Assembly: GCA_963924565.1 (NCBI GenBank)
Contig: OZ004612.1
Coordinates: forward strand, 26,846,001-26,910,000
From: Ascidiella aspersa
Taxonomy: Eukaryota
Length of the DNA stretch: 64,000 nucleotides
Reading direction: 5' to 3'
Translations under genes and position numbers: made by a program
Notes under the pieces: generated by a model
Told to the model about the DNA's origin: nothing
What the model saw: only the letters and a program-made list of their open reading frames with translations
Database searches by the model: none
Shown here: piece by piece, positions 1,990-64,000 of the stretch
How positions within the stretch are numbered: position 1 is the stretch's first letter
Layout: each line of letters starts with the position of its first letter

Positions 1990-4900
1990 ATGGATGAATA
2001 CGCAGAGTCAGAAAAGCGAAGTCTTTTAATTCAGTACTTTGCCTTTATTTTGGGTGCAGCACTTACTTACGGATCGTATTCCAGCTTGATATTTTTCATG
2101 TCAAGCATCCATATAAAAAGCGGTGTTGGTAAGTACTAAGAAGCTATATTAATGTCCCAGCAACTGTTTCCATAGCCTAAATAATCTCAATGTAAAATTG
2201 ATAAATTTAAGTGAACTTTAGTTTGTAGTTAATTTACTTATTAATTATAGGATAGGGCAGTGTTTCTCAATCTTTTATGGCTATCGGCAGCCCTCAGAAA
2301 TATTAAATCGATTGCGGCAACCCTATAAGATATTTCCGTAGGTAATGTTACGTGCTTAATTAGCACTACAAAATTATCACCGGTTGCTAATTACGCCGAC
2401 TGTAAATTCTAACATTCATTATTAATTTAGCGCCTTGGTTTTTAAATGTAGGGCTAGGAATTAGGTTTTCGCATTTCGAGACATGTATAATCGTATTTTA
2501 ATGTAATATTCTTGTGCGCTGTGGTGTTCGCCGTTAATTGGACTTTAGACATGTTTTTTCCTGTCTCCAAACATTTCTGCAAATCTCACAATCATTTATC
2601 GCTTGTTTTCCGGCGCCGTTTAACTTCTCACTAAAAGGTCCGCCCAATGTTATCTTTCCACGAAACGGCCGCCCTGTAAGGCGGGCCTGGGGTTTCCGGG
2701 AGCGCGTCGGTTCCCGTGAAAAGGAGTTTTGTTTTAGCGTATATTACGAGCGGCTCACCGCCTACAGCGAAGATAGACGTCTGGGTGTAGCCTTGTGAAA
2801 TTAGCGAGTAAAACCTTAAGCTTCATTATGCTCTGTCTGTCGCTTTTGTAAGTAATTGTGTGTGTCTAAGTGTCATTATTGTTTGTGGTGTGGTAATATT
2901 CTACTCTTGCAACCAATACATCTGTACATTGGGTTTTCTTGCTGTGGTCTTTAATATAAGTTCTCTTTGGTAGGTTATTTATTGCCCGAAAATAAGAACT
3001 CACAGCGACTTAACAGGAGGCCTAGGTAAATTTCTAGAATTACTAGTAAAGTCGTAACACGTAATACACTAGAATGACACAATAAACGGAACTATGGAAC
3101 AACACACATCAACTCAAAACCACGTATAAAGTTATAATTTGATTTTTTCCACTCTAATCTTACACAATAATTTGTAAGAGTTGAGCAAAAATCATATTCT
3201 TGAAGATAGCCAAATATGTCGCGGCACCTTTGATGATTAGAAATGGCACACTAGGGTGCCGCGGCACCCCGGGTGAGAACCGCTGGGTTAGGGCCTACTA
3301 CTGTGATCGTCCATCCCTTTTAAATATACAAAAATTACATAACTTTAAAATGTTTATTTCATATGTTTGTCGGACTTGGGTTTTTTATGTTGTTATTGCG
3401 TCATTTATAAATAAGTCAAAGCCGAGTCAATTTAAACCAGGAGCGGGCAACTTCTCGATATGGAAAAATGAAAAACTTTGCGGGCTGGATTCCTGATCGA
3501 TATTTTAGTTGTACTGCCAGAGTCTACATCCTTTGTCGCATATTGGCAGCTATTGTTGTACTCTTCTTTCATTGCACAGCAGACCTACTGCTTTCTTGCC
3601 TACTTGAGTGAAAACGTACTTGGGCATTCAATCCTTGTTAAATTCGTGACACTCCTTGTCAACTTTACGTTTTTAGGCAAAATCCTTAGGAAAATATTTA
3701 TAGTAAATTCTAAATCTAATTTAAACGTTTAGCCCAAATTAAAAAATCACAAAGAAAATAAAGAAGTAAAGAATATTTAACAGTCACCCGTTCTGGCCGG
3801 CGGGCCGTATGTTGCCCGACCCTGATTTAAACAAATGTAATAACCTAGACATTATCATAGAAAGCCAAACGCAAGTAACAGCATTGGAATGTATATGTTA
3901 ACTTACAATAACAGATTTCATTCTTACCAATATGTGTGAACTCTTTCACAAGTTAATTTACGACGTTTATAATATACTTTAATGTTTTTGTCCTTCAAAG
4001 ACACATTATTATTATTATAATTAATTACTGGTGAGGCAATAAGGGAGTGTACAAGTAGCCTTTAATGTGATATATTGTAATCAAATTGGAAGATACTTAT
4101 AAATAAACTGTATTTAAGGAACCGCAGCATCTGCAACAATATACGTGGTGAGCAGTTTATTCACATTGATTGGAACTCCAGTTGTGATAAAAGAGGTTGG
4201 AGCGAAAACTGCGATCGTGGCTTGTCACTTTGGATATCTTGCTAACGCCATCGCTAACTTCTATCCAGGTTCGTATTTATAATTCCTTACGAAGGCTTAC
4301 GTTTATCTGTAAAGCATACACCACCTAATTTTCCCATTTGTTTTGTTGCAGGGTTTTACACGTTGATTCCAGCAGCTTTTTTGGCTGGTGCGGGTGAAGC
4401 GGTGATGTTGCCCTTGATGTGTGACTTTAGCGTTCATTTCGCAAGATGCTACTCCCGATTGCAAAACAAGCACCGAGATTACTACCAGGCAAAGTTCTTG
4501 GGCTGGATGTGGTTTGTATACAAAATGGCCGTGGTAAAACATACTCTTAACAATTTTTCGAACTTGCAAAATTAAGTGATACACTATAAACTAACATTAC
4601 ATTGCCAGGTTATATGTAACCTTATCAACTATGGAATCTTGTTCGCGGGGAAAGTCCCTGATGCGAGCGTTGGGTTCAACGACACTCGGTCGCAGCGTTT
4701 ACTGCGCGTCTGCGGTATCAACGACTGCCAGGATTCGAACTTTACCGCCCTGAACATCGATCAGTACGCACCTGACCCGCGCACCACTTACATCGTTATC
4801 GGCGTCATCGTGGCTTTGACGCTAGGCGGCGCTATTGATCACGGCTTGGTTTTAAAACAACTTGATCGAAGTCTGGAAACAAAACCATGCTTGAAAAAAA

Positions 4901-8425: not shown

Positions 8426-11400
8426 TCATCCTGGTCCGCGTTCTTGCATTGCTTCCAAGCTGGCCTGTGACCTTCTCAGCTGGGCGATCAAGTGACGTAG
8501 TTGCTCGTTCGGTGACGTCACAGACCTGAGCTCGACCAGATGGAGCGCCAGAGAGTCGAGGGAACGGTTGAGCAAAGTTCGTCTATTTGTTGGTTTGAGT
8601 AAGGGGGTTTATTACTTGAGGTAACACACTTGATAAAATACGAATCCTATAGTGCAGGGGTTCTTAACCAGGTGTACGTGTACCCCTTGGTGGTACGAAG
8701 CACCTAAGCACGGGTACGACATACAGTGTGAAAATATGCGCGATTTAGGCATAATTGTGTATTTAGGCATATAAGAATGCGTGATTTACGAAAAGCAACA
8801 ACAAAAAAGCCATTAGTAAATTGAGTGATTGTTTGTGTGTTGTAAATATTGTTGAACTTACAAGACTGTATTTAATGCATGCATTCAACACGTAAATTAT
8901 AAGTACACTGTGTTTAATTCCTATTACTACAATTTTATTTACTTCCGTCGGCCATTGTAGACAGGGGGTGAGAAAATTTCATGAAAGCTCAAAGGGTACG
9001 AGCGCTTAAAAGGTTAAGAAACTCTGTTATGGTGTGTTAGGCGATAAAGGAATTTTGATTTAAAATACTAAACAGATATATATGTTTTTGGAGTTTTTTT
9101 AGCGGTGGAATGTTACAGTCTCGGGACCATTTTTAAAGCCACTAACATTTTTGCTTTGATTTTTAGCCTAAACAAACTTTATTAATGTACCTAAAACTCC
9201 TCGAAAAACTATATTTTTTGCTGAGATATGCTACAAAGTACAGTAGTTGTTTTAGGGTGATTTAGTTGTCAGCTACACTTTCCAAATTAAGAACAGCCGC
9301 TGAATAACTCGATAGTAACACTATTTTTAAATTGTCAGTCACATTAACTGAAGATGACGCAAGTTCGTATCGAAACGTCTCAATCAAGATGATGTCGATA
9401 TACTCGACCTTTTTGGCTTTGCAATTCATTATCAAGCTAGTTTTAGTTAAGTTTATTTTATTTTTTGTTTTTGTTTTGCGTTCCACCTCTTATAGCGGAG
9501 GTCTGAATAGCTCGACCTTTTTTTGGCGTTGAAATTTGATTCCCACCTTTTAATAAGTGATGCTTCGATTTACTTCTTAGTCACATTAAATGAAGATGAT
9601 GTCGATCTACTCGATCTTTTTGGCTTTGAAACTCAGAATCAAGCTACATTACAGATCCGTGCATAGTATTTCTTAATTTTACGCACCTTTGATGTCCAGA
9701 TTGAACATACTTAAGCGGGTCGTCAAGAAACACGGACAGCATTTCGTTGATGACGTAGATCAGGTGATGGGGATTCCCAAAACTTCCCCAGCACGGCAAC
9801 TGTGGCGTCATAAAGAGGTTTTGAAGCAGGTCATTAGCGTCAAAAGCCGACACAATGTGGAATAAGTGTATTAAGCAGTTTTAATAATTTGTAAAATTGT
9901 TCTTCCGGAAAATCTTTTTTACTGAACGCGTTCTTCGAATTGAGCATTATTCAGCATTTCACAATGTACGAAAACGATTTTCAGCTTTTGTGGAAAATAA
10001 TTTGTCAAAAAACAACCAGCAAATTTTTCCATGTCAGTGGAGGCTATAGCTGTACATGAAATCGCCAACGGCATAAAAAGTATATTTTTATCCGCACTCA
10101 TTTAACACATAACTTAAGGCTTCACATAAAAACAATTTAAAGAGTTTAAAAAAACGCAGTTCAGTCAATTACGCTACAACTATTGCAAAACTTGGATACT
10201 TGTAACATTTGTAAAATTGAAAACAGCTGTTAATCAATTAAATATGTTTCCCAAGCTAACTTAAAAAGCAAATGTAGTTACAGGAATATAATATGTATAC
10301 AACAGACGAACTAAAATGTATCTCATTAACTATATGTTTTTCGTTAGCTGAACTATTTGATTTGATTGTCATAAAAAATAAGACCAACTGTCTGAAAAAA
10401 AAAACCACATAATAAACAAACAACGGTGCCAATACCAGCCAGAGTTTACCAAATTAACAAGAAACAGTTAAAGTTTACCTTTTGGGCGTGAATGGCGCCG
10501 TACTGAGCGAGAAGTTCGGAGATTGGGACTCCGATTTCGAGCATTGCGCTGAAAGTCCAGTTCAAATCCCATCCGCGTCCACACGAGATCTTCTCCAGAA
10601 ACGTAACCAGGAAATCTGGCAAAGACGAAAGCAGAATGTACGGCGGGAATATTAGAATATAACAAGTAAAAAAACTCATAGTTAAAAACATGAGTAAAAA
10701 CAGGATCAGACGTTTTGTTTAAAAGGAAAATAAATTCGCCAAGTGGCATCGTCAGTTCCTTAATTCGAATGAATCTAAAACCTGCCGCCGATGGTTTTGG
10801 ATTCTATAAAGATACATCCTATTGTATGGCAATACATACATATTCGAGTGCGCGTTACATATACATCGCAATAAAAAGCACGCGTTACCATAAATTGCAC
10901 TACCATGTATACAAGTCTGTAAAGTAGTGAGAGATGTTCTTCTCCTTCCACGGCCGCCAGCTCAGCTCGCAGACGCGCTGTTGCAGAGATTATTAATTTG
11001 ATCGCGACTTGCGCTCTCTGCTTGATCTTCGGGCTACGGTTTTCAGGTGCTCAGCCCACAAGCACCGCGCGTACAGTGCTTAGCCGGGAGTTGAGCCCCG
11101 GATCTAAGGATTGCTGGACAGTGGCGCTAACCAATTCGCCAACGCGCCCGCGTGGCAATATAAAGTTTGTATGTAAGGCTGGTGCTCTGTGGTTTATTCA
11201 CACAGACTACTACAGGGTTGGCACACAATTTTTTTTGACATTTCCAAGGAGATTTGATTTGTAGGTTTTCAAAATACCTAAAATTCGATCACTCGACGTT
11301 TTTTAAATACAATTCGAAAACAAACAGTATAAATGTCATGCAACACAATTACATTTTTTGCAATTGTTTTTTGAAACTGCACTTTCAAAACACATAAAAG

Positions 11401-14400
11401 ATTTTTGAAATAAAATATATAGGATTTAAAAAATCTAAAATCTACAAAACCTAGAATAGTATAAATTTCATGGTCAGCACAGTATCATTTTTTGTAAAAA
11501 ATTGTTCACGGTCCTTTAAAAAGCATTAAAATTTCGGAAAAACACAGGGTTTTTCAAAGACTTTCCAATACGTAAATCAATCCAAAGACTTTGTGTCAAC
11601 CCAAAGTAGTTTGTTTAAAACAAATGTTTTGGGGCGGGTTTTGGTTGGGCTTGTCATAAACAATTTTTTTAACTAACCTTAGTTAGATTTAAGTTAGGTT
11701 TACTGTGGACGCGTTTGCCTACAATGGAAACCTCGACTCGCAACAAAACACCTTTTTAGAACGATTTACTGCAGCGTTTTTGAACTTTTTTTCGCGACGA
11801 GCCAAAAACTAAAGCGTTAGTACAACAGCGACCATTTGGCGGCCCAATTCTCTTTACTGAACTTTTTAAAAGCAATATTTGTGCGGATTGTAATTTGGTC
11901 TATATCGGCGAGACTGGAAGGTCTTTCAAGACTCGCCGTAAAGAATACCAAAGGGACGTGGCAAATAACGACGAAAATTGATTTTGGTGGCGCTTCAATA
12001 ATAGCACGAGAATCAGACTACAGGAAAATATTATTTTTGGAATCGTGGAATATTCATAGGAAGGGTAACACCATGAACGTCAAAACTGACGTGATGCTTT
12101 CTGCATGCTACAAGCACCTGTTGAAGGACTAGAGGCAGTCGCTAATTACTTTCTTATCGTTTTGTTGCTCGCGTTTATTTCTGTTTTTTTCTTTTTTTCC
12201 TTTCCATTTATTGTACGAGCGTTCAGTGTCAATCACCCTGACGAAGGCGGGTTGTATAGGTTGCCGAAACGTTGGTTAACAATTACAATTACCAGAGGAG
12301 CTGTTTTTGATTTATATTACAATGCCTGGTAGCAACAGTTTATATATTTTTAAAAGCAAATTAAACAAAACAATTTAGCCTTATTCAGTGTAAAATTAAT
12401 TAATATGAGCTATTTCTTCGAATTGCTTACGCAAGATTCTCAAATTTTGGGAAAACATTTCTCAGAACCAATTCTAATAAATCTAACCGATCCACATGTT
12501 GAGAAACATGAGGTACGCTTTGTCTGACTTGGGAGAAATAAACATAGATGAAACGTACCGAGTGGGAAATATCTCCTGGTTGATACGTATCTCCTTCCAA
12601 GTTCTACGATCTTGTGCCCAACTATGCTGGACTGGTTCGAGTTGTTGCTTCCCGGCTTGGACAACTCTGTATTGAAAAACACGGAAGTTAGTCGATTGTG
12701 ATTACACTTGAGTGATAATTTGAAGTTCTTAATGTGTTGAAAGCTAAAGTCTATATCAGTGTGCAGGAATTTATTAACAACACAAATGCTTACACAAGTG
12801 GATTCATATGTTAATTAGAATGAATACAAAACAGTTTTATTAAAACAGAAACAGCATCAGTAAGTTGAACATCATTGCCAAACACCAACATGTAACTAAC
12901 AAGGCAAGCTCCTACCGCGACAAGGTAGTACCACCAACTGCCGTACGGACAATTACAATGTCAAGGCGTCATGTGCTTACTGCTCAGTGACCTTGACCAA
13001 TTGACCGCGGGACATACAATGCTTACACAATTAAATGAAATGCGCAATGTTAACCGAAAAAGCACAATGTTGCACCGCATGAAATTACAAAAGCAGTGTC
13101 GCCTTTCCAATGACTAAAATTTAACTCTAAGACATTGATCAAAAGAAGTAACCATAATAGTGCTGTTCTAAACAAGCTTAAACATTATAACAAGGGTAAG
13201 CAGTTACCGTGTTCGATAATGTTCTGCCACAGAGCTTCGACCAGTGAAGGATCGTGCAATCCGGCGCAATGGACGATGGCAAGCTTGCACTCGGCCAACT
13301 GGTAGGGTTCGGCGAATTCACGATACAGCTGTGGAAAACATACGGTCAGTGTTTTCTCATGTACTGCTTATTCTCTTCTGCAGTTACAGAATTAGGCTAC
13401 ATTTACAACTGTGACCTAGCCCTTCTGGTAAATATTTTTGGTAACAGACCTCTGAAGAAATTTAGGAAACAATTTCGGATTCCCAAAACCCGTAAAATAC
13501 CCTACAAACATGCTGTATTTTGCATTGTTGTAAACAAGACTTTTTTAAAGTCCTCAGTCATTTGCCAAATAATAAGCAAAAAAATACAAGTCAAGTCCCA
13601 GAGTAAATCAACTTCAAGTAATTTGAAATGACATAAAACCTTTATCTAAGTTATTATGAGCAATAACTAAACTAAAATCAACAGGAACGCAACATGTAGA
13701 AAGCAACTAGTTTGACTTACAAAGGTAAGTTAAATAAATCCAACTCTATTAAAAACACCTGATGTCAACTCAAGCAATTTTTCCAAAAAGATTTAAGTCA
13801 AGTAAATTCATTTGTAAAAAGTGACTCAAGTGCATTTTTGTCAACTTAAGTTATTACAACACTGGTATTTTGCTTTATATTTATATTTGCTCATGATCAA
13901 GGACAACTGATCATTTCTTGTTTTCTTGCTGTTGTATTTTTTATTGAACTGGGCTTTCTAATATATTTAGCGAACTCATTTAATTGGATTATTCTGTGAG
14001 GTCAGATTAACAGAACGAAAAGCCAAAGAAACGATTAAAAACAAAGTGGTTTCTGCTACATTCCAAGATGCAATTTTTATGGTAAAATTCAACATACAAA
14101 ATATATTTATATACATTTATTTTGTTTCAATGCGCAGTAATTTGTTTGTATATCAAGCTAAATTTAACAATCCTTTTAGAATCAAAATCAATAAACAATA
14201 ATTTGAAGTAATTTCACCATTTAAAACGTTTGCACATTCACATAGATTATTATTTACTAAGATTCAGAAAAGCTTTAAATGATAATAAGAAAAATCCCAC
14301 TAATAATAAGCGATATCTGATGATATCGGATTTGACATCTTATAGTACCGCTATTCGTTTAAATTAGGGTGGTATCAGTTTGAATTCTATTGCTCCAAAG

Positions 14401-17400
14401 CTTTAATTAATTATAACCAAGATAAACATGCACTGCATAATTGCATATGTAGCAATAACTAATACCAACACAAGATCGATGGATCCCTAACGTTTTCTCG
14501 TCAGCATTATTCAAAAACTCACAGTTGTGACGTCGACAAGCTGGGAGTTTAGTCTCGCAGCAGCCTCGTCATGATGCAGGTACTGAAGTTGCTGTAATGT
14601 TTGTAGTTGGATCTCGGCAACCTGCCAATACGATGATAAAGAAAGTGAAGCCAATTTCCCAACTATTTTTACCGTGTAAACTGTAAACCAATTAACTTAA
14701 CTAAGTTTCAAACGACAATTTACTTATATTTATTTGGTTCTTTGCCGAAATAGAAGATAGTTTAAAAATATACGTTGAACTTTTGTGATTTTCAACATGG
14801 GCTGTTTTTTTTTAATAAACACAACTTTCACTAGCGATATTAAATTGTGCAATCACTTAGCGACATTTTTTTACAAAACTACGTCACTTTTGCAAGAATC
14901 GATGACTTCACTCACCTCCAGTTTTTCTTCGAGCTCGTGCAGCAGTTGACCTCCAGTTGACCCCTGATCGGCGGTTACTGACGTCACACTTCGGGCGTTG
15001 ATCTTGGCACGTGACAAGTGCTCGATACGTTTGGATAGGTCGCGATCGTGTCTGAAATAAAACAAATTGGAAAAAGGGTAAATATTAAAATGGCTGTTTG
15101 TAGCAGTGTAGTACATATAAGTGAAGTTTCAAATAATTGTTTTGGCATTTTTAGGTAAGGTTTTCGTCATTTCGAATAAATTTGTTTTTTTAATGACCCT
15201 TTTACCATAAGAAAAAATGCTTTGGGTTGCCAAATTTTCATTGAGTCCACAAAGACATCTTTTTTCAGGTTTTTAGATTGGAATTATTTTTATTTTTTAA
15301 GTTATTGTCTTAGATGAGTGTTGCCCAACCTGGGAGTCGTTATCTCAAAGGGTTGTCTGAAGAAATAAGCAATATAAACTAAAAGTTTAGCATTATAAAA
15401 GGAGTAAAAGCAGTCGACACTCAGCTTAGATTTGTGTTATGTGGCTTTTGCTGCAGTGAACCTTCAACTAATGAATCAATCCTAGTTTCAGTCAAACAAT
15501 GTCTAATAAAGTAAATAGATGTTCAAACCGTAACTTTACCTTGTTGTGCCTCTACTTGAATCCGGACATTTAAGCCAAATTTTGATACAATCCGTCCAGA
15601 TTTATTCACAACTTAAATTTTACCAATTTCAAAATGTTTTTTTATTGACTTTCGTTTATGTATCATACACTATCATTGGGGGGTCGCGAGAACAAAAAGG
15701 TTGGAAACCACTGGTTTAGAAATGTGGTCAGTTAAACTTGTATACAGGGGTGTTATAAAAAAACATACACATAAATGCAGTTTTAGGGTTACTCAAAGTT
15801 AACTTGTAAGGTGAAAAGCGGTGTGATAATTCAAGTAAGGAAACAGTTGCTTTAGCATCAGTAGAACCCTACCCGGGTTTTTCGGCCAGGTTGGCGAGGA
15901 TTTTTGCCGCCTCCGAGTGTTGACCGCAACGCTCGTAATACTGCCACAAGAGGTCGCTACCGGTAGCGCCGATAGCGCTTGGGTTTTCGTCTTGGCTGGC
16001 GGCGACTTGGCGAAGAAATGATTCGACGAAAGGCGATGAGACCTGCAAAGCAAATGAAACAGAGTCGTTTAAATATAACTAGGGCGGACTTTAAGCGGGT
16101 GGCAATTTTTTTAGTTGATTTTAATCCTGGGCTAAATAAATAAGCATTAGAGGTCCTGGAGATAAATTCGTTCAATTTCAAAAAAACAACGAGCATCCTT
16201 TTTACTACAAACAAAACAGGGTTGTCACGCAATTTTGGAGAATAAATTCAAAGACACAAGAAAATATTTCTAAGAAAATTTACAGTTTTTTAAAGACTGG
16301 AATAAATCACTCGTCATGTTTTAAATATAATGAAAAAAACAAAAACAAAAAAACATCAGAGTTTTTAAATTTATAAGGTTTTTAATGTGCAGATCAAAAG
16401 ATATGCAAAGACTCAAAAAGATGAAGACTATATAGCAAACCTGGAACAATATTTCCAGACTGGGTAACGGGAGAAATATCGGCCGAGATATTTCTAATTT
16501 TACAGGTTTAATAAGGCATAGAGAGCTCAGAAAAACAAAAAGATTCTTACCCTGAGCAATTGACCGGTCAGTCCCTTTCCTATCATCCATTCGTATATGG
16601 TCACGTGTAGCAGCTCGTCGGATGAGGCCAACGCTCGCTGGAGACAACTTTCAGCCTGAAAAATCGACAACATCTTTGTAATACATTTCTATACCTGCTT
16701 GTATCCCTATCAGTTAACGTGTTAACTGATAAAACAATTGTGTCTCAGCTTTTGTAAGTGAGGTTTGAATAGATTTCAGTCACTTTAACTGCTGATGCTG
16801 CTGATGCAAGTTCGTAATGAAACGTCTTAATAATCAAGATGATGTCGATTTACTCAACCTTTTTGACTTTGAAATTCATTGTTAAGCTACATTACAGATT
16901 AGTGCATAGTGTAACCTAATAAAAATAGGTACTTTTGAAGTGGCCTAACACCAGGTGATATCCAAGATATAGTTATCAGACAGGTATAGCATCACTACGA
17001 CCGTTTTTTAAAGAAATTACTTAGTTAAAGATTTTCAACAGACACATGTAGTTTGGGTACATCTGGTATAGCCAGGTGGAATATGTGAACGTGTCGAATA
17101 TGTGTTAGGTCAATACAATAGATGTCGCACACATGACCAATTGATGTCTGGACAAGCCTAATAAAGCGTTTTTTGAACAAATCAATCTCGATCGCTGGCT
17201 TGGAATGCAATTAATGCTCCAAATGTATAATAAGTGCTCTTGTGATTTTTTTACTGAACCAGTAGGTCTCTAAAAAATATTTCATTCGATCGCAACCAAA
17301 CATAAGCTGGCTATAATTGGTATTTACGATTGCCAATGTGGCACAGTTAGAATATACTGTCACCGCAAAATTTTATACGTACCAACGTTTCGACCACCTA

Positions 17401-20400
17401 TTCAGGCAATCTTCTTCAGGGCATAATTTAAAGTAAGAAATTTATATCGTGTATATGGCTGCCCTGGCATAGGCACAAAAATCGCTTTAAAAAACGACTG
17501 GCGTTTTACGAGTGGAACGTACAGTGTGTTCACATGATGCATTATATTCTTTCCTGGTGCATTATATTCTTGATTTTACAACTCATGTTAAAACACTCAC
17601 GAATTGTTGGGCTTCTTCTGGTTGAAGGGGCGCTGAAAACACCCCCAGGCCGTCCTGACTGGGGGTGCTTTTGGGGGGTCCTGGCTGCGTGGGAACACTT
17701 GGCGCCGCAGGGTGGCTCTGTCCGGCCGCCATTAGTTCCTCAAGCATTTCAATGATGCACTTGTAACACTCCTGTCTGTTGAGTCATAAAGAAAAGAGAA
17801 GATTAGGCGAAATTGAGGTTGAATGTTTTTTTTACGATCGACAAATAAAAATAGTATTTTTCATAAGCCATAAAAAAGCACTTGTTAATACAACACACAC
17901 AAAGTACGGTTTTGACCATTTAGGTTTTATTCCGATATATACCGTTTTACAACTGTTGGGTATTAGTCCAATTTTTGATTTTTTTTCAAAATTGATTTTG
18001 GTCTGATTTCGATCTTTGAGAGTTTGATTATAACAGGTTAAATACTAAAACAGTATATGAACAATACCGTTCTCGCCGTATTGCGATTAGTCTTATCGGT
18101 AAGTAACATCATACAATAATATTGTCGGTATTAAGCGGATAATCTGGCCTTCGAATCAAATTGGTTGTAACTTTCTATCGAATTGGTAACCGTAATTAAT
18201 TGAAAAAAATATTGTTTTATGCGTTTTCCACATACTGCTTCGCCCAGTTGAACTTACCTGGCTAAGTAGGCCTTCCTAAAGTCGGGGTCCACCTCAGGGT
18301 CACTGGCTCCATGTGGTGAATGGTAAAGCTTAAGAGCAAGCCCTTCCTCGTCACGCTTGAGGGCAGCAGAGAGACACAGGTCCACTGCTCCGGTGTAAGA
18401 TCGCACTAAACAAAAGGGTGGGGTAATATACAAAAAATAAATAAAATAAAGGAAAAGTAACTTTCAAAAAAATCGAATTAATCAAGTGATATGAAACCTG
18501 AACACACACATGTGTGTTTACAACTGAAATCTAGCCCTTCTGAAGATGCTTTTTGACCAACGATTACGGCTTACATATCATTAGTACACCGAAAGCCATT
18601 GCAGACTATTCACCGAATCTGTCGATCAATGATGCAAGCAGGGCAGACTAGAAAAACAACTGGCCTGTTGTGAGATTCGAACTCACGATCTCCGGTCAAG
18701 CCAGGACCGTCGCTCTACCAACTAGCTATGCAGGCTCAGAGAGGCCTTTTTTTCTTTCTATTTGATATGTAGAGTTGCGCTAAACGCTTTTAGTGGTTTA
18801 CTTTAGATCGGGTGGTATTGTGCGTTCTCTAATGAGTAATCAGAAAATGTGTTTAGCGTGTGTACCTGCTTGGAACTGCTGCACCACCAATGGTAAATTG
18901 ACCGAGTGGGCGATTTGCTTGAAAAGATGCGAAGCTTCCTGGAGCAGTTCTTGTCGCTGGGTGGCGGTACTGGTGCGTGCCGCTCCGAGCAATTCACTCG
19001 CCTGAAAATATTAGGGTAAAACATTCAGTTCGGCAGATTAATCTGGCTTGTGGCTCATTTTCCAAAAAATATTTTTTTCCTTTTTTTAACATTGTTTTAA
19101 ATAAATCGAACTTGTAAGGCATCCTCACCTATATTCCCACTGTTACCAGCTTGTCTAAACAACAACTCGGTTTTTAACATTTGACTAGGGATATTCGATA
19201 ATACCAAATGTGGATGTGATAGCATCGTTACTGGTCGGATACTGAAATTAATTTTTCAATGAAAGTTTGTCTATAGAATTTTCTAATTTCTAATTTTATT
19301 AGAAAACAGCATAAACAATTGAACTAAAAAGAAAGGTAAATTGATGTCGTGACAAAAATCTAAATTCTGCTTCATAACCTTCAACAATCCGATTTTTAAG
19401 CTCAACTTGATTAAGTCCGACTGCATTAAGTGATATTAGAGCAAGGGCTGCGGAGTCGGTTAAAATAACTCGAGACGAAAAACTAGAAATGCGGGAGTCG
19501 GTGAAAGTTGTAGCTTTGGCAGCAGTAGTCGTCCGACATTCAAATTACAGTTTATGCATTACAGAAGCGTTTCTTAACCAGGGGTATATGTACCCCTTGG
19601 TGGTACGAAGCACCAAATCAGGGGGTACGACAAGCAGTGTGAAATTATGCGTTATTTAGGCATATTTGTGAAGAATGCGTACTAACGAAAAGCAACAACT
19701 AAGAAGTCATTTAGTAAATTGACTGATTGTTTGTTTGTTGTAAATATTGTTGAACTTGCAAGACTGTTTTTAATCCATGCATTCAACACGTAAAACGTAA
19801 ATTATAAGTAAACTGTGTTTAATTCCTATTACTACAATTTTATTTACTTCCGTCGGCCATTGTAGACAGGGGGTGAGAAAATTTCATGAAAGCTCAAAGG
19901 GTACGAGCGCTTAAAAGGTTAAGAAACACTGCATTACAGCTTTGTTTTGCGATCCAACATAAATTTTCAGCAAAGTTTAGAAAAACATTGCAATAACGAT
20001 AAAGATAAAAAGCTTTCTAACAGAAAAGCAAATTTTGTTAAATAACCCCAAAAAACAATAACAAAGCACGGCTAATATTTCAGTTCGATATTCATACTAT
20101 ATATTTTAGGAAATATTACTGGGTACGATTCTATACTTAAATAATGTCAATAAATTGTCAAATAAGCAGATCAGAACAAATAAAGCCAAAAATTGCGTCA
20201 ACGTAGTAAACTTGATTTATCTTGAATTCTTAAAGTAAAATTTTCTTGGAATTGGAAATACCTTTTTCTAGAGTGAAATCCACTGCATTTAATCGCTAGG
20301 CAAGTAGGCATGGCTAAATATCTTATATAATGATTTGGTATCGGATGAGCACCGATACCACCCTAGTATCAGACGAGTAACGATACTACCACTTGGCATC

Positions 20401-23400
20401 GGTATCGGCTGGCTCAGGTCCGATAATAATCTACTCTGTAGTGTACACCAGCGGTTGCAAAGCTTTTCTAAAAATTTTGCAAGGATCCGTTGATCCATGT
20501 TTCTTGTAGTACACTAGTGGAGTCACAATTATTTCTAATGTAACAACTTCCTAACTAATGCGAACGATTCGCTGATAGCAGATAGTACGGCACAATAGAT
20601 GCTTTATGATGTCACAAGAGACAACACGCTATATGATCGAATAATAATAAAGTAACTAAAGACAATAGCAATATCAGATAATGTTTAGAACATAGAGTAA
20701 TATTTAAAAACATTCGCTAAAGCCTAATGTTATAAAACTTAAATACTCATTCTCACTGCGGACCCTTTGAAACTGTTGTACGGACCCCAGTTTGGGAACC
20801 GCTGGTGTACAGTCCTAATAACGAGGTCAAAACAATTGCAACAAAAAGTAACCTTTGAACAGACAGCGTCATCTAGCGAGTAAAGTGAGGGGCAAACCTC
20901 CCTCAGCTGTGCGCTCAGGGCGTCCACGGTTGAGTGATCATCGATGTACTTCGTCACCAGCGTCGAAATAAGGGCGCCACAGACCTGAGTTTTTAAAGAA
21001 CAAAAAATTATCTACTTGACAATCACAGAAACATCTCTCGACCAATCCGCCTCAAAGTCTCCCCCGCAACCCCCAAAAGCCAATTTTAGACTACACATTA
21101 GTTACATATTGGCGTAAGAGTTACCGACAACAAGATCTTAAGTCTGTTTGTTTTATGACGTCATTCCTTGGACCACGCAATCCAAAAATATATTTTAGGA
21201 GGCCGTGTTAAAAAAAGTTTAAGAACCCCTGCTTAAACAGATTAATATGGAAATATTTACTACCTTGTTTATTAGTAAAAAAACACAGTAAAATCAAATA
21301 AATTTCATAAAAAACATGAACCGATATATCGGATTTCGGATATTTCGAACTATTTGTATAAACGTAGGTTCATTTTACGTGTTAAGACAGATTTTTGACT
21401 TACGTTTTCGCCTCCCAAAACCAGATCTTGGAAGACGATGGACTTTAGGGAAACTTGGTGTGGCTAAAAACACAGCAACAATATATTAATGATCTCAGTA
21501 TTTAGAAATAAAAAGGATTTTTAGTACTTAAAAAAAACAAATCATTAGAAAGTTTTGTTCTTTGACGTTTCTAGTCTGTCTTCCGGAAATTGACGACTAC
21601 ATAGTAATAAGAAACACGTAAAATTGCACCTAAATCTAAGCAATTTAAATTAAACCGAAGTATACGAGACTTTGAATTTACACGAATACTTGATTTCCTT
21701 AAAAAGTCAAAAAGCATTTGTCCGAAAAAACATTAAAAAAAACATTCAAATTAAAAGACTTTTCAAAATGTAAATCAATTTAAATTTTGCACAGACTTTG
21801 TGGCAACCCTATATCTTTTCTCATTGATTTGTCTTTTTTCGCTATCCCCTGTAAGCCAACGAAAAATAGCTTACCTTGTCTAGTGAGTCGTAGAGCACGT
21901 GGATTTGATGATGAAGCAGAAGTCTCCACAACCCTAGCACCTGGACACTTCGCTGAACCAGCTCGGATAGAAACTGCATCGACACAAGTTCGGCAGCCAC
22001 TGCGTCCGCTTGGGGAGGTAGAGGGCATTAGTAAGGTTCGAAGATTTTGGTAAATTCGATTAGAGCATGTCGATTCAAAGACAGATCCTTGGCGTTAAAA
22101 TAGAATAGAACGTGTAACAATAAAAAATGCTAAATTCGCGCGATTATGAGCGATAACTCGAGTAACGTAAACGCAATTTTTATGTGTAAAAACCGAAGAT
22201 AAATAATCCAATTTTATAAAAAAAATTAGGTCATTTAAAAACAGTGACTCAGGTGTTAAGTCGTTGCAACATTGTTACACACAGTTTTTCACTCCCCCTC
22301 TCGCCAATACGAGTTTCATTTGCTCCGAGCGAGTACCAATTGACACCGAAAGCAAAAATTAATTGTTGTTGACCTACTACTGGATTTAACTCGTTGATCT
22401 GCGACAAATTATTGGGTAAACGCCAAAGCATGAAGCCAAATAATGCGTAAATCGCTAACGATACACGATTTCGGAACTACAAAAATAGGTCCTACAAGTA
22501 ATAGTCAGGTCTAAAATCTTACTAAATGACAACTATGTATGGTACGCACCTAAATTGAAGGGTTTAATTGTTGGAAACAAACATAGAGTTAGAAAGAAAA
22601 ACAGACAGCGTGTCGTTGTTTTGTTATGATATTTCGTCCGGGCGAGTGCTGATTGGTAGCAGGGTTGCCAGATAGAAAAAATAAAAAAAGCCAAAATTAC
22701 TCTAAAAAAAGGCCAAAAAAAGCCAAATCTACTACAAACTCTAACAAGTCTATGTTTTTCCCTAAATAAATAAAAAATGCAATAAATGGTCATGCTGGTA
22801 CATTGAATTTCTCTTTTTGTGGCATTTTTTTTTTTTTTTTCTTTTTTTGAAAAAATAAAATCCAAAGAGGTTCAAAACAAGCCTAAATTTTCAAATTTGG
22901 CTTTAAAAAATCCTAACTGGCAACCCTGATTGGTAGACGGTCGCCCGATTGGCAAGTGCACATTTCAAATTAATGTCACCACTGTAGGCAAGGTTTTACA
23001 AGGTCATTAACCAGGGCCATCGGTCACATATAAACGCGGAGTTTGGGGTAACTAGGGTGAGCCAACTTAGCAGAAATTTGGAGTGCTCAGCCCACCTTAA
23101 ACAATGACAAATCTTACTGTAAATACTGTGAATTTCGCGCTTTGAGACTCTGGCAGCTATTTAGCACTATTTTCCATGACGCAATTCAGCAAAATACTTT
23201 CCTAACAAATAAACTATTAGTTTTGAGTAGTTGAGGTTATTAATACGAACGTTTAGTTATTTTTATTCGTTATTAAGGCGCATACCCTAAAAAGCGAGGC
23301 ACAACCTAGTATTGTATCCCAAAAGTTAAACACATACACTCCAAAATCGAACGCATGAGTCTTGAAAAGCGGCTCACCAAGGTTTCTCCTGTGCATCTCG

Positions 23401-26400
23401 TGATGCACGCTCATGCCGTGATCACTTCTTCCGTACATTGGGGCGAAACGCGAGCCTCGGTCGTGCATAGAGTGGTGGCTGTCTCTGGCGTAAAAAATAA
23501 GTCGATACAGTTAACAAAAGATACACATACATATGCATATCTGTCGGAATAGATAGCGATGCTTTTTCTCAAAAATATCGCTATCGGTGTAGGATTAAAA
23601 TGCCAAGCACCGGACATCCCTAGTCGAAACAACAGCGAGCCTTTAAATTAATTTCGCTGACCGCAATACTTTTGTCAATAATAACGGGTATCGGAAAAAA
23701 TGTCAAGTATCGGACATCCTTAGTCGGAACAATAGTGAGCCTTTAGTTTTATTCACCTGACGGGGACTTGAGAAAGGCAGTATTTGACGACGAAGTTGCG
23801 GAACGAAGTGAGATTTTCCAGAACTATCCCGATCATCTCCTCGTCCAACCTGCTCACCACCTTTGACGAGAAAACACATAAAAATACTTTTGCGAACTGG
23901 GTAGGCTTGGCTCCTTTAAATTCGCTTTTTTTCCGTTGATCTATGATTGTATACTTGTGAAGCGTAATGTTTGGAGGTTGTGGTAAGCTTAGTCAGCATA
24001 TCAAAGCCCATACAGAAGTAGGTAGGGGTAGAATTTTGAAAGTTAATAAATTCGAAAACGTTCAGAAAATCTACTTCTGTATGGGCTTTGATCTTCTTAC
24101 CAATAAAACTATGCCATGTGGACAAGCTTCTTAGATTCAAACAAAGCGAATCTATCTTTTTTTAAACAACCTTTAACTTGGGTACGCTACTCACGAATCT
24201 GTGATGTAGCTTAATGCCTGTATTGTTTTGTTTTTATTGTATACCAGTTGGGTGCGTTAACCAAAAAAATTAAAGGTTGATGGTGAATTGCAAAGCCAAA
24301 AAAGTAGATTGACATCATCTTGATTAAGACGTTTATATACGAGCTTGTATCATCTTCAGTTAATGTGTTTACGAGATACAAGCTCGTATCGAACCGTCTA
24401 AATCAAGATGATGTCAATCTACAAGACTTTTTTGGCTTTGCAATTCACCATCAACCTTCAACTCAATAGTAAATATACATGTCTTATACCTTTGCAAATT
24501 TGTAAGTAAAAACAAATGTTCTATATACAAGGCGTGGAAACTTATGTTAGACAGGGGCGCATGAAGATTAAAGAACAGAAAATGTCTTGAAAGGGCAGGG
24601 TTAAAAGGTTATTTGAAATACGCATAATTCATACTGTTCTTCATAAAAAAAATATGTAAATAGCATTGTTTTGGCACGCTGTTGGAGTAAGAACATGTGA
24701 AGATACCTTACAAGTAAAATAAATCAATAAAACATATTAAAATTAAGGAAAGAACGTAAAGGTTTATTTTTTCTCAAAACGTTTTACAGAAAATAAGCTG
24801 CAGGTAGCAGTTAACCTTATCTATAGAGATCTAAAATCCTGGTCTTAGTCTTAAAACATTCCATTGAACTATTTATGCTCTAAAAAAATTAAAACAAAAA
24901 AACAAAAAAGCAAAAAAGCTCAACCATTTTGAAAACAAAAACAACTAAAAATAAAAGAACACAAGTTACGAAACATCAAAGCCATGGCCCCATGTTGAAA
25001 ATGAATAAAGACTATATACAAAACGTTCAAATTGCTACCTACGTCTATATGGACTTGACATTCTTTCTACGTCTACTAAAACCTTTAATCATTACGTTGC
25101 ACACACAAGTTACGTTTTCGACTTACAAATTTTCTCTGCTTGCCTCCCTCAGTGAGAGTAAAGTCCTCAACCAGCTTTCCTTCCCATAAGGGACGCATTA
25201 TACGCGAGAACATCTTGTAGACGCCGTGCTGTCGTTCCGAGTAGTAGCTTAGCTCGGTCACTCCTACAGCACCTTTGTTTGAGCAGGTTAGTAATTAAAT
25301 CGGAAGAATAATTTTCTAACCTGAACAACAATTTTTTTTTTTACTGAAAATTTTTTTTTTTTTAATATTTTTTTACACCGGTAAGATCAAAATCTCTTTT
25401 GTCTGCTTTAAGGGATAAAATATTGTTATTTATGCAAAACTGATTTTTACGGTTTAGAATGCCTTAAAAAGTAATAAATTGCTGGTAGAAATATATTTTT
25501 CTTTACAAAATAACCGCTAAACATTACTTAGCAAAATTATGAAACAACTTTCTTGTAGCGAACAACAACAATTACAGGTTCAAAATAACATATATTTACA
25601 AAATAATATGTAACAACCAAGTACAAATAAAACTAGGGTTACCTGTGGTAGTTGGTTGTTGGCCCGTTGAAGTGGTTGACATGGGTTGCATACTTGAGGG
25701 GTAATGGGGGGTCTGGATCGGGGGCATGCCCCCCTGAGTTCCCGGCATCGGTGTGCTGATTACTGGCACTGAAAAACAAAGTTTGGGTGTTAACATTTTT
25801 ATATAGTTAGGTATAACGAAAATCATCAAAAAGATGCACAAATTGCACGCAAAAAACACAGCACACTGAAAAAGGTTTACCTGAAGTCCCCAAAAACACA
25901 ACAAAGATTTAATTTGAACAGTGCAAACTTAAGTTTACAGTCCGAAAGTATTCAAATAGGAATTAATTCTTGCTCATTTTTAAACAAGAGAATTGGACGA
26001 ACTACGATTTGTTTGAAAGTTAACACTAAAAATGAAATTCAATCAAACTATATTCTATTGACATTGGTTACAGTTTTAAACGCTCATTTCGTGTTTAAAA
26101 CTGTAATCATCAGGAGACTAAATTAAGCTGCATTAAAATATTGTGCTCTTCCAAACAGGACTGGGGAGCAAGAGCTGGAGTCATTTTTATTCAGTTTGTG
26201 GCGATCTAATGTTTTATTTTTACGTTAGTGATTTAACCTATGGACGAATTACTGCAATTATGACTTTACATGGGACTGGATTTGAAGTTGACTTGCTATT
26301 ATAATGACTTGTCTGGGTTATTTTTCAAAAGGCAGTTGGATTTAAGTCATTTCAAAATGACATGTTTACATCCCACACATTTCAAACATTAAAAAAACGT

Positions 26401-48203: not shown

Positions 48204-51200
48204 ACTTAAGCAGTGCTCATGAGGTGCGACCCAAATTTGGGTAAACGTTTGATTTGGTTGGGTCACCCACTGCACGAATTAGATTTTTTGTAATTTATAC
48301 TGGGCAAAATATATCCAAAATTGCGACAACTGGGTAAAAGAGATGCCCCATATCAATTAAATTCGATTTTATTTATGATAATGGTGTTTCAACGTTGACT
48401 TACAAAAAGTTAATTTCAAAAAAATGGGTCGCCAAAGCTACGTTATTATACTTCACAAAAGGTTGAGAAACACTGACAAAGTGTGTCGTTTTTCGTTGTA
48501 CGGTTTTTATCAGCTATTAAATATCATACTAAATGTTAAAAATAAAGCAAAACAAACACACACGCATTTCCTGTCTTATACCCAACCTCTTATTTGGCAT
48601 ATAGGCCGTGTGCATATAAATCGCGTTGGTATGAGTAATACTAGTACGACACTATGCCGGTTTAGGTTTTTTGGGCTTTAATTCTTTAATCCTTTTGTTT
48701 TAGGTTAAATGTCAGACAATTTAGCAGTTATGACTTGCTTATTAAATACAAAGTGTTCTTGCAAGGCGTTTACTTTATTTAGGCCAGCTGTATTTTGGCA
48801 TGAGAAACGTATTTTTTAAAGGTAACTGTGTACAGGGCGGGTAAAGCATTTACGTTTGCGAATAACCTTTTTTCATAAATGACGTCATAACGTACATCAT
48901 AAACATCTAATTCTAAAAACACCCAATGTTTTCGAACGAGCTTATCCGCAAATATTTTTTAAATTGCGTATACTTTTGGTTTTAAATGAGACGTGATCAT
49001 TGGACACATGAGGATTTACATGTTTTTTCAAATGAAAGCAATTATATAATTAATTTGGCAGAATTTACACTTTGTACAGCTCATGAGTTCACACGGCGCA
49101 AAATGCCATAGTGTGGATGTCGCCTTTGAGCGGCAAAAATATATTTTTTGCTTCAAAGACCCATGGATATATCAAGCGCTTGTTACCAACATAGACCAAC
49201 TTTTATTGATAATTGTCCGTAGTTTAGTTTACAACCGAACAACGCACAGGGTAAAAAGAAGTCGAGTTGAGTAATTTAGTGTGCAGCTAAACGCGACACT
49301 TACAGGATATAAGTGGGGTGGAATTTAAGAACTGCGGCCTCGTTTTGCCGTTACAAATTACTCTTCTAAATACAATTCAATCACACACTGACAAATGGCT
49401 TCCTGCATAATGTGCACTGTGTACAGCAGTTGGCGGTGTACACTATACGGCGACTCCGTATAACTTCGTAATTAATCGGTTAATGCGAGTGTAAAAATTG
49501 AACACTTATTGGAACCTTAAATCGCGTTTTAATTGTTTTGCCATTATCTGGCGTGATGGAGTCAAAACAAGATTTACAATCTCATCCAGCGCATTTTTCC
49601 GGTGACAAGCCGCCATGTGGATAAAATATATTCAAAACAATTATGTTTTATCAATTGTAACAATCTCTTTCGGCTTAAAAAAATCTGAAATATAGCTCGA
49701 CCATGATTTCAAACTAATAAGTTGTCTGCGAAAGAAATAAGTCCTTAACTAGTTGCCAAGACCGTATAAAAAATGGCGTACAAGTCTAAACGGAGTGAAT
49801 TAGCACAACCGTGTAATCTTTTACTTGAGATTATTTTTATGTAATATATCCAACACGTGTTTTATGCACGTAAAATTTATTCTGGGCTCAAAATATTCGA
49901 TTGCGCCGCTTGTAACAAATTCGGTTCAAGCTCGGCGCTAATGCGACGCCATAGTCTGTTTGTGATGGTGCATGGTAGGAATTTAAAAGACGGATGCACA
50001 TACGTATGCTATTTAATCTTTGCCGAGCGCTTTGTGGTCCTATGCTTTACGACCGCCCGCTCCTTTTTTGTCTGAAAAAATGTTTATACATACAATTTCA
50101 TGACAAGCATCGACGATGACAAATGAAGAAACTTACACTTTTAAGTCAAGGTTTAGGCTTGCTTGACCACTAACGCTCGTTGCATAACTCCCGTTCAAGC
50201 CAAGGAAATTTAATTCATACACATTGACTTTTTCGGTTCCCTTTCCTATACAAAACAGGTGAAAATGTGATTCGCCGCGATGCCACGTATAGCATTATAA
50301 CTATGGTAATACAACAACAGGTGCTATTATTATCGTTGGTAAGTATATCACAAAAATACACGTGTGTGTGAATCCCACATTATTTGTCTCTGTATTAGTT
50401 ACAAAAGCTCTTGACCAAATGTGATGTCGATTTACTTGGCTTTTGGCCTTCATTAGCCTATTAGGCTACATGCAGATCCGTACCTACATAGGTTTGATCG
50501 GAAATATCCACAATAAAAAAACAAAACGTCAAATAGTTTATTAGCAGTAACCTTTCAAACTGGGGTCTGTTGACAAACTGGGTCCATACAACAGTCTTGG
50601 GAAGTCTGCGAAAATACTTTTTATATTTACACCAGTTTGTAGTAGTGACTGAATTAGTTACAAAAGTCTTTGACAAAACGACTTAATGACAGAATATCGG
50701 TTTGATTTAACGTCCTAACAAAGATTACCTCTAAGGAGTAAAGCAACAGGCGTGACATACAGATAAAAAGTAGGCCCCTCGTTAAGGCCCCGCGAGGCGA
50801 GATGCATAATGTTTCCCCCTTTGGGCGCCAGGCGTGCTTATCTTGTCACTTTATTTGCTAAAGATCGTCGACTACAACGTGTGGTAAACCAGGCAACTGA
50901 TAAATCTCTACTCAAGTCGGCCGGAATATTTTGTGCTGGACCTCTTAGTTAGCTTAGAATTACTACAACAATCGTTTTAAAAAGATCGGTTGTATCGCGC
51001 AGCCTTCGTATGCTCACGCGAGAAAGGTTTACTACATGAAATGTGAGAATGACGCACAGCTTCAAGCCTTCTAACACTTTTTTTCCCAACTAAACGCATA
51101 GTCGGTTGTACTTAGAAAATTATCACCGATATTGAAGCGGATAATAACTTAATTGATCCTCAAATATATTTTCCACTTTTTAAAAAAAAAATTCCCAACT

Positions 51201-63195: not shown

Positions 63196-64000
63196 TGTCT
63201 CGGTGGCAATTAGTCACTCAGCCATATTCTCGAAAGTTTTTCTAGCTTTACCAGAGCGTACTTTCGGAAACGGGCTGCTTGTAAATCAACAAGGATGGCG
63301 GGTAAAACAAGTAACTACAATACTCGTCGCGCCAATCATATGACGGTCGCCTGTTAGCAGGCTTTAAGTTACCGCGACAACAATTATCAAAAGTATACGC
63401 CATAGCCACTGTAATAAATAGTTGACTAAATAAATAAAAATGAAGCAATGTGATACACGCCAAACTATTCACTACAGCATTTAAACGCTTTGCCTAAACC
63501 AAATTTGTTCAATCCTTTTTTATAGTTTGTTTTCATGAAACGTTTTAAACTAATGCAGGCGATTAACATAGTAGCAGCTAATTTACGGCGAGGTATAGTT
63601 AGGTAATTAGTCGATTTGTGTGTCGCAGACTAGATCGGGACACAATCCCCAAAGTAGCTGCTAAGGATAGGAATGACTTTACTTTCTCGAGCAAGACGTT
63701 TATTGGTCAGAACGATAATCAGTATACGGCAAATAGTGCTCGCATAAGGCTACAGCTTGTCTCTAACCAACGAGATTACAAATTGTGCTCAAAATACGTT
63801 CGATTCTCTAGGTATCCACCCGACGAATCCTGATGCAACACAACGCTATCCAAAACGAAATCGCACACAAAGATATCAGGCAGCGCTGAGAAAGGGGGGC
63901 TACGAAATTTATGATGTCAAGTTACTCGACCTTTTCAGCTTTAAGAATCATTACGTCACAAATTTAATTATTGTAGCCCTTTTGTGCCAAACGATTGAGC

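Follow-up and report, generated by a model that had tools for sequence, protein, structure and literature searches.

Minimal hammerheads were described in 2014 in the pLTRs of Penelope elements as thousands of scattered single copies (Cervera and De la Pena 2014, PMC4209133). In the Poseidon element PAc of Anolis carolinensis (Frangieh et al. 2024, PMC11167929), the hammerhead lies at the junction of the pLTR and the ORF, and in vitro work has demonstrated internal priming, the tail, and a cleavage that is both assisted by the protein and dispensable. The elements Pen2 and Pen2a of Adineta vaga (Arkhipova et al. 2013, PMC3846280) have an inverted 5' pLTR with a TATA box and an Inr-like sequence, as well as an optional ~31-bp tail coding for the first residues of the ORF. 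The arrangement that we describe below is already in print (PMC4209133, PMC3846280, PMC11167929). Non-LTR retrozymes (PMC7229834; 10.64898/2026.07.22.740005) are short hammerhead-bearing repeats related to Penelope-like elements (PLEs); they form head-to-tail arrays of 150-450 nt units, each with a working hammerhead, and produce circular RNA.

We analysed a stretch of 64 kb of Ascidiella aspersa DNA (the window), in which short copies (stubs) of a repeat that we call family A are dispersed (Table 1). This repeat is very probably the end of a PLE, consisting of a minimal type I hammerhead followed by the first ~28 codons of the ORF, and its spread in the form of short cDNAs was likely the work of the protein that the element encodes. 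With the hammerheads of metazoan PLE pLTRs (PMC4209133), it shares the unpaired base between 9 and 10.1, the G10.1-C11.1 pair, a stem I of 4-5 bp, a palindromic 15.2-16.2 segment without loop 3, and the occurrence as thousands of dispersed single copies, with nearby opposite-strand pairs. Unlike in that description, stem II is 5 bp long (7-8 bp there) and N7 is A, which permits a competing fold, while the U3-A8 core variant reported there is found here in a sister family (C). We did not find the host or family A among those named in the available parts of that article, and this particular family may be unnamed.

The similarity to Poseidon PAc includes the C-terminal EN, a hammerhead where pLTR and ORF meet, a pair of 3' ends that lie within the start of the ORF at a distance of 30-40 nt, AT-rich targets, an apparent template of uncleaved RNA, and RNA reads that never end at the cut. 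The priming sites are at about +47-51 and +77-83 here and around +111-118 in PAc. Unlike in PAc, the ATG in stem II of family A is out of frame (9-codon uORF), the ORF ATG is 9 nt past the cut, and we found no intact master. The inverted 5' pLTR, the optional coding tail, and the pLTR with TATA box and Inr-like sequence are shared with Pen2/Pen2a, which are of low copy number, whereas here the stubs number in the thousands and have one boundary at the predicted transcription start site (TSS). Like non-LTR retrozymes, the repeats are short, PLE-related, and hammerhead-bearing; unlike them, they occur dispersed or head-to-head, and their sequence runs on into a PLE ORF.

Table 1. Family A copies and exons of the host gene Nup155 in the 64-kb window
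Feature	Position	Strand	Remarks
Family A stub, short 3' end	9335..9439	+	Profile match E 5.8e-35
Core of the 9335..9439 stub	9348-9379	+	Predicted cut after 9379; ORF ATG 9389
Second copy on the same strand: TATA-like box in the upstream pLTR, without core, long tail	9536..9667	+	E 3.1e-26
Nup155 exons	13209-13334, 14904-15041, 15818-16048	-	Host gene span 13209..33919
Nup155 exons	16548-16655, 20847-20993, 33761-33919	-	Host gene span 13209..33919
Decayed inverted partner of 16725..16913	16661..16724	-	
Longer family A copy, long tail	16725..16913	+	E 2.8e-38
Long-tail segment of the minus copy at 24.3 kb	24181..24215	-	E 0.017
Family A stub, start at C3-8/-9	24274..24368	-	E 5.4e-25
Inverted partner, truncated at its 5' end within stem II, with a mutated 3' box	24375..24460	+	E 3.4e-20
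Decayed inverted partner, absent from the original prediction	30768..30809	-	E 7e-4 with 16782 query
Old family A copy, long tail, decayed stems, absent from the original prediction	30817..31009	+	E 1.7e-22
Decayed tail fragment	50399..50486	+	E 4.2e-5
Tail fragment	63911..63953	+	E 2e-4

With a profile derived from 51 natural copies, we obtained 12 matches in the window, of which 9 had E<=2e-4; in 11 controls of 64 kb each, there was no match at E<=10. The copy positions of the original prediction proved to be real, and the majority sequence of the family is identical to the consensus that it had proposed. The 'at least 7 pieces' that it had counted do exist, though they correspond to about six insertion sites rather than to seven independent copies: 24367(-)/24375(+) is a single head-to-head insertion, and 16661-16913 and 30768-31009 are also inverted pairs. 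Among its tail-only pieces, those at 50420 and 63911 are indeed tail fragments, while the one at 9581 still has sequence from upstream (9536-9580) and no core, which was apparently lost through a deletion between two 8-nt repeats. Smaller duplicated bits are found beside this copy, at 9476-9537. Both core boxes, G10.1-C11.1 and GUC are kept, within the window, by the core at 9348-9379 only; each of its stems contains one mismatch. The hammerhead core is broken in the other window copies, by a substitution and a short duplication in the 5' core box of 16725..16913 and by changes of C11.1 and G12 in the 3' core box of 24274..24368; about 59 nt of other DNA separate this last copy from its tail segment. 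A TSD search found a probable 12-bp duplication at 24.2-24.5 kb and 6 bp at 16.7 kb and none at three other boundary sets, a clear TSD being present in 1 of the 5 family A sets tried. Tandem Repeats Finder detected no array of the repeat unit in the window, and Pfam gave no match for two long window ORFs. Rfam also gave miRNA-like matches, at 24.0 and 27.7 kb, which correspond to inverted ends of sister family C.

The insertions at 16.7, 24.3, and 30.9 kb sit between exons of Nup155, and the one at 9.3 kb, which is oriented opposite to this gene (copy at 9341), probably lies within its last intron (about 8570-9690). The minus-strand copy at 16661..16724 stops 5 nt short of the splice acceptor of an exon. 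The window copies are dead fossils inside Nup155 introns. In a sample of RNA reads (~6% of one raw run with the same species label), the two strands of the stub were represented to a similar extent, 94% of the reads continued into unrelated sequence, and the depth over the ORF was mostly 0-2. The stub RNA is passive transcription within host RNAs and has no bearing on cleavage. No pile-ups of read starts or ends, including at the cut site, were seen in this ~6% of the run; no back-joints were listed for it either, which cannot exclude circular monomers.

As the suggested link to PLEs implied, the repeat is the terminal segment of an element with RT and GIY-YIG. It runs on into EN and RT sequence at L027, L063, L064, L072, L078, L084, and L126, and the RT of longer copies scored above the cut-off for PF00078. 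The homologues (784 of 616-2000 aa, E<=1e-20) include some with PF01541 (GIY-YIG). RT and then the GIY-YIG EN are encoded in a single ORF, which is broken in family A and intact in the sister families B (848 aa) and C (843 aa), 50% and 47% identical, respectively, to the RT of family A. Full pLTR-ORF-pLTR copies are present for B and C. Of the parent element that had been sought, we located broken family A copies and, among the scored candidates (150 of 260), no intact or full-length one; the 150 listed included 22 rows for family A RT (>=77% identity), with 433 aa as the longest open frame. Of 30 loci, 19 carried the 5' core box downstream of the EN segment, and in 18 of these the box lay at +261 to +332. 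The 'tail' is protein-coding sequence, namely the first ~28 codons of the parent element's ORF, and the peptide that it encodes shows homology to the N-terminal end of the intact sister ORF; in both, the same hammerhead motif precedes it. None of 91 3'-complete copies continued into the ORF, and a search for the family A N-terminus with that of family B found nothing between the end of the tail and about residue 190 (150 of 638 candidates). Pfam gave no match for the family A EN piece; solved structures comprised no PLE protein and yielded one weak RT match. The ORF of L091 contains a DKG motif, the EN carries a C-x-C..H..H pattern, and the linker has no other cysteine pair. Judged by motif, on the criteria given in PMC8557442 (DKG, an EN at the C-terminus that contains CCHH, and a linker free of zinc fingers), the element is of the Penelope/Poseidon type, to the exclusion of Naiad, Hydra, Neptune, and Nematis. 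In a tree that included no named PLE references, A, B, and C clustered with six unnamed proteins (support 100/100).

The high copy number that had been predicted was borne out genome-wide, with 495 exact family cores and 2,008 tail matches (<=1 mismatch), compared with 0 for both in controls. Inverted partners were observed for 13/20 and 18/30 position-ordered copies and a same-strand neighbour for 1/30; 9 of 13 inverted pairs joined one short and one long 3' end, such head-to-head partners being non-independent observations. The 3' ends were bimodal, about 32 nt apart, with 22/74 at C3+88-92 and 19/74 at +118-124, and the same two ends appeared in the loose ends of reads and contigs. The 5' ends fell within 3 nt of TATA+30 in 10/30 copies of family A (p 6e-6), 5/22 of B (p 0.009), and 22/29 of C (p 2e-21), and in none of these families exactly at the cut site. 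The distance from TATA to C3 differs among the three families, while the 5' peak stays 30 nt past TATA. In family C, 11/30 5' ends fell on one base. An extra G at the junction marks the cap in L1 insertions (PMC11702581); such a G was present at 18/31 family C junctions for 0.22 expected, in excess at the first junction position only. This excess was absent from family A (5/30, 0.25 expected) and family B (3/10). The pile-up at TATA+30, the cap-type G of a sister family, and the absence of ends at the cut indicate that the stubs were likely copied from uncleaved capped RNA; since family A lacks the cap-type G, it is the 5' pile-up that argues for run-off to the TSS in this family. In Drosophila virilis Penelope, an intron ends at stem I. 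A 3' splice site behind the 5' pile-up was rejected for family C, in which the nearest AG is at U3-16 and the ends peak at U3-3.

The stubs could also be random 5' truncations of the same element, primed in the downstream pLTR, with no TSS and with a structural hot spot for stopping or joining at stem I. The wide range of the family A 5' ends (C3-78 to +34; 9/30 further upstream than C3-20 and 9/30 inside or behind the core), the lack of a G excess in this family, and a possible bias of end calling by palindromic junctions fit this account, which we nevertheless consider somewhat unlikely. It does not predict a peak 30 nt past TATA in three families that differ in the distance to C3, nor the sharp, G-marked ends of family C, and an RT moving 3' to 5' should stall on entering a stem rather than on leaving it.

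The motif itself has, by its sequence, the parts of a minimal type I hammerhead, as originally predicted: the CUGANGA and GAAA boxes, an NUH cut triplet, and the stems. The common form of family A keeps all core positions and 10/10 stem pairs, with G10.1-C11.1 closing stem II and an unpaired base after A9. Over six related families, 9/11 pairs were altered on both sides (0/500 shuffles as high), including C3-G8 to U3-A8, 4/5 in stem I and 4/5 in stem II. In 17 cluster representatives, which include three decayed family A variants, 48/68 of the first four stem I positions pair (3/10,000 shuffles as high). The palindromic 15.1-16.1 segment is ACGT in 13/13 aligned representatives, for most of which the search patterns required ACGT. 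Another set, made up of seven hammerheads in which stem II is longer, showed weaker covariation (score 0.464, 3/500 shuffles; 112/500 shuffles for pairs changed on both sides). The Rfam scan of the window (7 matches listed) contained no hammerhead family at E<=5, presumably because the motif has no stem III.

That the family A match is a decayed relic without catalytic ability is unlikely. In the fold predicted for the monomer, the cut site is paired with the 5' core box and would be hidden (-6.0 versus -3.1 kcal/mol, z-score -0.85), the modelled active dimer is at -6.9 compared with -20.9 kcal/mol for the cofold minimum, Rfam is silent, and no RNA ends are seen at the cut in the ~6% of one run. 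These observations stand against the intact core and stems of the common form, which covary with those of the sister families, and in published work weak cleavage that depends on a dimer or a protein is usual for motifs of this kind (PMC4209133; PMC11167929). The motif is likely to be self-cutting, judging from its sequence; we propose that it is conserved as a structure across the lineage and remains uncut in most templates.

The original prediction of a separate, non-autonomous retrozyme-like family, amplified through hammerhead-cut circularised RNA, is highly improbable: short copies do far outnumber those with the ORF (2,008 tail matches versus at least 22 RT rows; summed contig depth ~2.1 million versus ~1-4 thousand), a 171-nt tandem array exists (L021), and according to a preprint non-LTR retrozymes originated from PLE pLTRs (10.64898/2026.07.22.740005), but the units of that array have broken cores, the window has no unit array, neighbours are mostly inverted (18/30, with 1/30 on the same strand), copy ends fit PLE priming sites and never coincide exactly with the cut, and longer copies are continuous with the ORF for RT and C-terminal GIY-YIG.

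In the cycle that we propose for the PLE, transcription would begin ~30 nt past the TATA box, at the predicted TSS 7 nt before the hammerhead C3. The element's protein would nick AT-rich DNA and start cDNA synthesis from one of two positions within the ORF, +47-51 or +77-83, which would account for the two 3' ends. When the first such site on the RNA is used, synthesis would end by run-off at the capped 5' end after 95-130 nt, yielding the common stub, while priming at the downstream pLTR would copy back into EN/RT and leave the rare long 5'-truncated copies. Two cDNAs would often be joined head-to-head. Hammerhead cleavage would likely require a dimer or the element's protein. In four families, the hammerhead sits between the start site and the ORF ATG, 4-13 nt before the latter. 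We tentatively suggest, as one possibility, that most Penelope insertions here are run-off cDNAs from the capped TSS to an internal priming site, recording in vivo a capped, uncut template, and that the hammerhead, rather than serving to make the template, would act as a switch removing the cap and the short upstream frame, leading to decay or to cap-independent translation.

As a family, the repeat is routine, being mostly ordinary mobile DNA. Its value is mechanistic: the stubs would dominate because of run-off copying of an uncleaved capped template, and the copy ends provide in vivo, genome-scale support for such a template. The genome also contains young, intact elements of the sister families, whose cores are C3-G8 and U3-A8; with these, the question of the role of the hammerhead becomes testable.

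We searched the window with a profile made from 51 natural copies of the repeat (family A) and obtained 12 matches, 9 of them with E<=2e-4, while one reversed and ten shuffled windows gave none at E<=10. Copies were confirmed at the places named in the original prediction, and the "at least 7 pieces" counted there are real but group into about six insertion sites, listed below with other features. Hammerhead positions (C3, G8, 10.1-11.1) follow the standard hammerhead numbering. Among the window copies, both core boxes, the G10.1-C11.1 pair and the GUC triplet were all retained only at 9348-9379. The observation was largely right and the interpretation half right.

Repeats and other features of the window
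Feature	Position	Remarks
Family A insertion site	9.3-9.7 kb	two partial copies, same strand
Family A insertion site	16.7-16.9 kb	head-to-head pair
Family A insertion site	24.2-24.5 kb	head-to-head pair
Family A insertion site	30.8-31.0 kb	head-to-head pair
Family A insertion site	50.4 kb	fragment
Family A insertion site	63.9 kb	fragment
Family C stubs	23957-24099, 24992-25094, 27644-27746, 31561-31712, 47824-47864	
Inverted family A piece	16656-16676	stops 5 nt before Nup155 splice acceptor, provides part of pyrimidine tract
Minimal hammerhead, other family	17419-17384 (-)	apparently intact; 8-bp stem II, GUU; Nup155 intron, pre-mRNA sense
Minimal hammerhead, other family	12238-12273 (+)	third intact-looking one in the window; antisense to Nup155
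Duplicated gene pair	37989-41867, 53975-57788 (-)	identity 72-82%; exons long and rich in Gln/Ser; frames of 705 and 683 aa without Pfam match
tRNA-like sequence	18662-18735 (-)	32.8 bits, then T run; possible tRNA-derived SINE head
Inverted repeats, 159 bp	87-245, 4117-4275	83% identical, 4.2 kb apart; possible DNA transposon ends
Hairpin, 113 bp	36007-36119	near-perfect, MITE-like
Repeat, ~365 bp	8661-9026, 19571-19931	two copies, 87% identical

The predicted high copy number was upheld in the 308.6-Mb animal assembly containing the window, where the family A core (32 nt with 3 free positions) occurred 495 times and the tail (the 3' part of the stub) gave 2,008 matches with <=1 mismatch (controls, 0 for both). 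A generic minimal-hammerhead pattern gave 1,595 matches (control, 2). The median identity of 75 core-bearing copies to the majority was 0.96 over 68 nt. Six copies of one inverted insertion (L029, L031-L036; G000:C6:31.69-32.51 Mb) had flanks 96-99% alike, indicating that this insertion was multiplied together with the surrounding DNA.

When aligned, the genomic copies agreed on the 3' side and varied on the 5' side. Upstream of the repeat lay the end of a GIY-YIG endonuclease (EN) frame (locus L027) and, further upstream, a reverse transcriptase (RT) frame (reached in L063, L064, L072, L078 and L084), as expected from the predicted link to Penelope-like elements (PLEs). Of 30 loci identified through the EN segment, 19 have the 5' core box downstream of it on the same strand. 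In the longest copy, L091, the RT frame spans 419 aa, includes the DKG and YVDD motifs and matches PF00078 above cut-off; this frame begins near residue 190 of a full ORF, and the 5' end of L091 is an inverted terminal repeat (pLTR). Its homologues are RT proteins of 620-1,200 aa, some with PF01541. The ORF in L091 is also interrupted by an inserted element of 999 bp (3722-4720), which is bounded by 15-bp terminal inverted repeats and accompanied by an 8-bp duplication. Family A made up 22 of the 150 RT rows listed, and no intact family A frame was present among the 150 of 260 candidates scored (longest open frame, 433 aa). The tail translates into a 28-residue peptide homologous to the ORF start of the sister family B. 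This coding tail and the continuity of the repeat with the RT and EN ORF make a separate, retrozyme-like family very unlikely. The lineage is Penelope/Poseidon-like by the motif criteria of PMC8557442: a C-terminal EN, DKG, CCHH and the lack of a zinc-finger linker.

Intact frames were found in sister families B (848 aa) and C (843 aa), whose RTs share 50% and 47% identity with that of family A and which carry a hammerhead at the equivalent place at both ends of the ORF. In an RT tree (20 rows, without named references), A, B and C clustered with six unnamed proteins at 100/100. Family C, which has a U3-A8 core, gave 4,104 tail matches genome-wide, and a head-to-tail array of at least 4 family C elements (period 2,671 bp, frames of 698-816 aa) was present at L145-L148 and L159-L162 (G000:C9:23.486-23.496 Mb). 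Two of the family C stub sites in the window are inverted pairs, which Rfam scores as miRNA-like hairpins.

Family A 3' ends fell at C3+88-92 in 22 and at +118-124 in 19 of 74 copies, some early calls being caused by indels close to the end; reads and contigs had two 3' ends identical to those of genomic copies. An inverted partner was present on the 5' side in 13/20 and 18/30 copies (two position-ordered samples), with a short end paired with a long one in 9 of 13 cases, and only 1 of 30 position-ordered copies had a same-strand neighbour. Family A thus shares an inverted pLTR with optional tail with the PLEs described in PMC8557442 and PMC3846280, its tail corresponds to two internal priming sites in PMC11167929, and it differs from the head-to-tail retrozymes of PMC7229834. 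A single 171-nt tandem array (L021, G000:C4:30177204-30177804), made of a family A tail and a short inverted piece, is a satellite-like by-product whose units have broken cores.

Stem covariation, the absence of which would have spoken against a hammerhead, was indeed observed: when six related families were aligned, each by a single representative, pairing held in 83% of cells and both sides changed in 9 of 11 pairs. The score was reached by 0/500 shuffles, which is not a probability since the shuffle ignores kinship, and the signal was lost when partners were slid out of register. Support was weaker in a second set of seven more hammerheads, in which stem II is longer. The core pair C3-G8 is replaced by U3-A8 in family C, a covariation reported in PMC4209133. 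In the predicted monomer fold the cut site is paired with the 5' box (-6.0 vs -3.1 kcal/mol), the active dimer as modelled has a much higher energy than the cofold minimum, an Rfam hammerhead search of the window gave no match, and no RNA ends were seen at the predicted cut site in the reads examined; these results speak against easy activity. For minimal hammerheads described in the literature, cleavage is weak and takes place in dimers (PMC4209133) or requires the element's protein (PMC11167929). Another frequent hammerhead family (L095, L098) lacks the unpaired base after A9, and showed neither a tandem unit nor a match to a PLE protein within 1.5 kb.

Exons of Nup155 (minus strand) flank the copies at 16.7, 24.3 and 30.9 kb, and splice signals and an open frame place the 9.3 kb insertion probably within the last intron of Nup155; the sole intact family A core is antisense to this gene. 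In an RNA run, the stub was read on both strands and 94% of reads extended into unrelated sequence, which fits a passenger in host transcripts.

For the 5' ends, copies were picked by tail alone (30 loci per family, first by position) and ends counted from -80 to +35, a range that dropped 8 ends in B and 1 in C. The predicted start site follows the usual TATA-to-TSS spacing and Inr consensus. Within +/-3 nt, a tolerance fixed after family A and the family C reads had been seen, 10/30 (A), 5/22 (B) and 22/29 (C) ends lay near an A 30 nt behind a TATA-like box; 2, 3 and 0 lay as close to the cut site and none exactly at it in any family. In family C, G was the first base outside the element at 18/31 junctions (0.22 expected) and occurred in 4/38, 2/38 and 5/38 cases at the next three positions; families A (5/30) and B (3/10) had no such excess. 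Four of the family C stubs in the window begin at U3-3, two of them with the extra G. At full-length L1 junctions an extra G marks the cap (PMC11702581). We infer that the templates of stubs were uncut in most cases. On a capped transcript, reverse transcription primed at the first internal site would run off the 5' end after 95-130 nt, yielding what was originally described as a "~130-nt consensus", and priming at the downstream pLTR would yield the rarer long copies.

In families A-D the homologous ATG follows the cut at a distance of 4-13 nt; the ATG within stem II keeps the reading frame in B, C and D but starts a 9-codon upstream frame in A. A viral hammerhead cuts 7 nt before a start codon (PMC13725137), and one may speculate that the PLE hammerhead plays a similar role. 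The element type, hammerhead motif and layout of family A are known; a literature search of the main text of openly available papers brought up no account of PLEs in this host or of stubs that are bounded by the TSS and marked by the cap. The value of the findings lies mostly in the 5'-end evidence.
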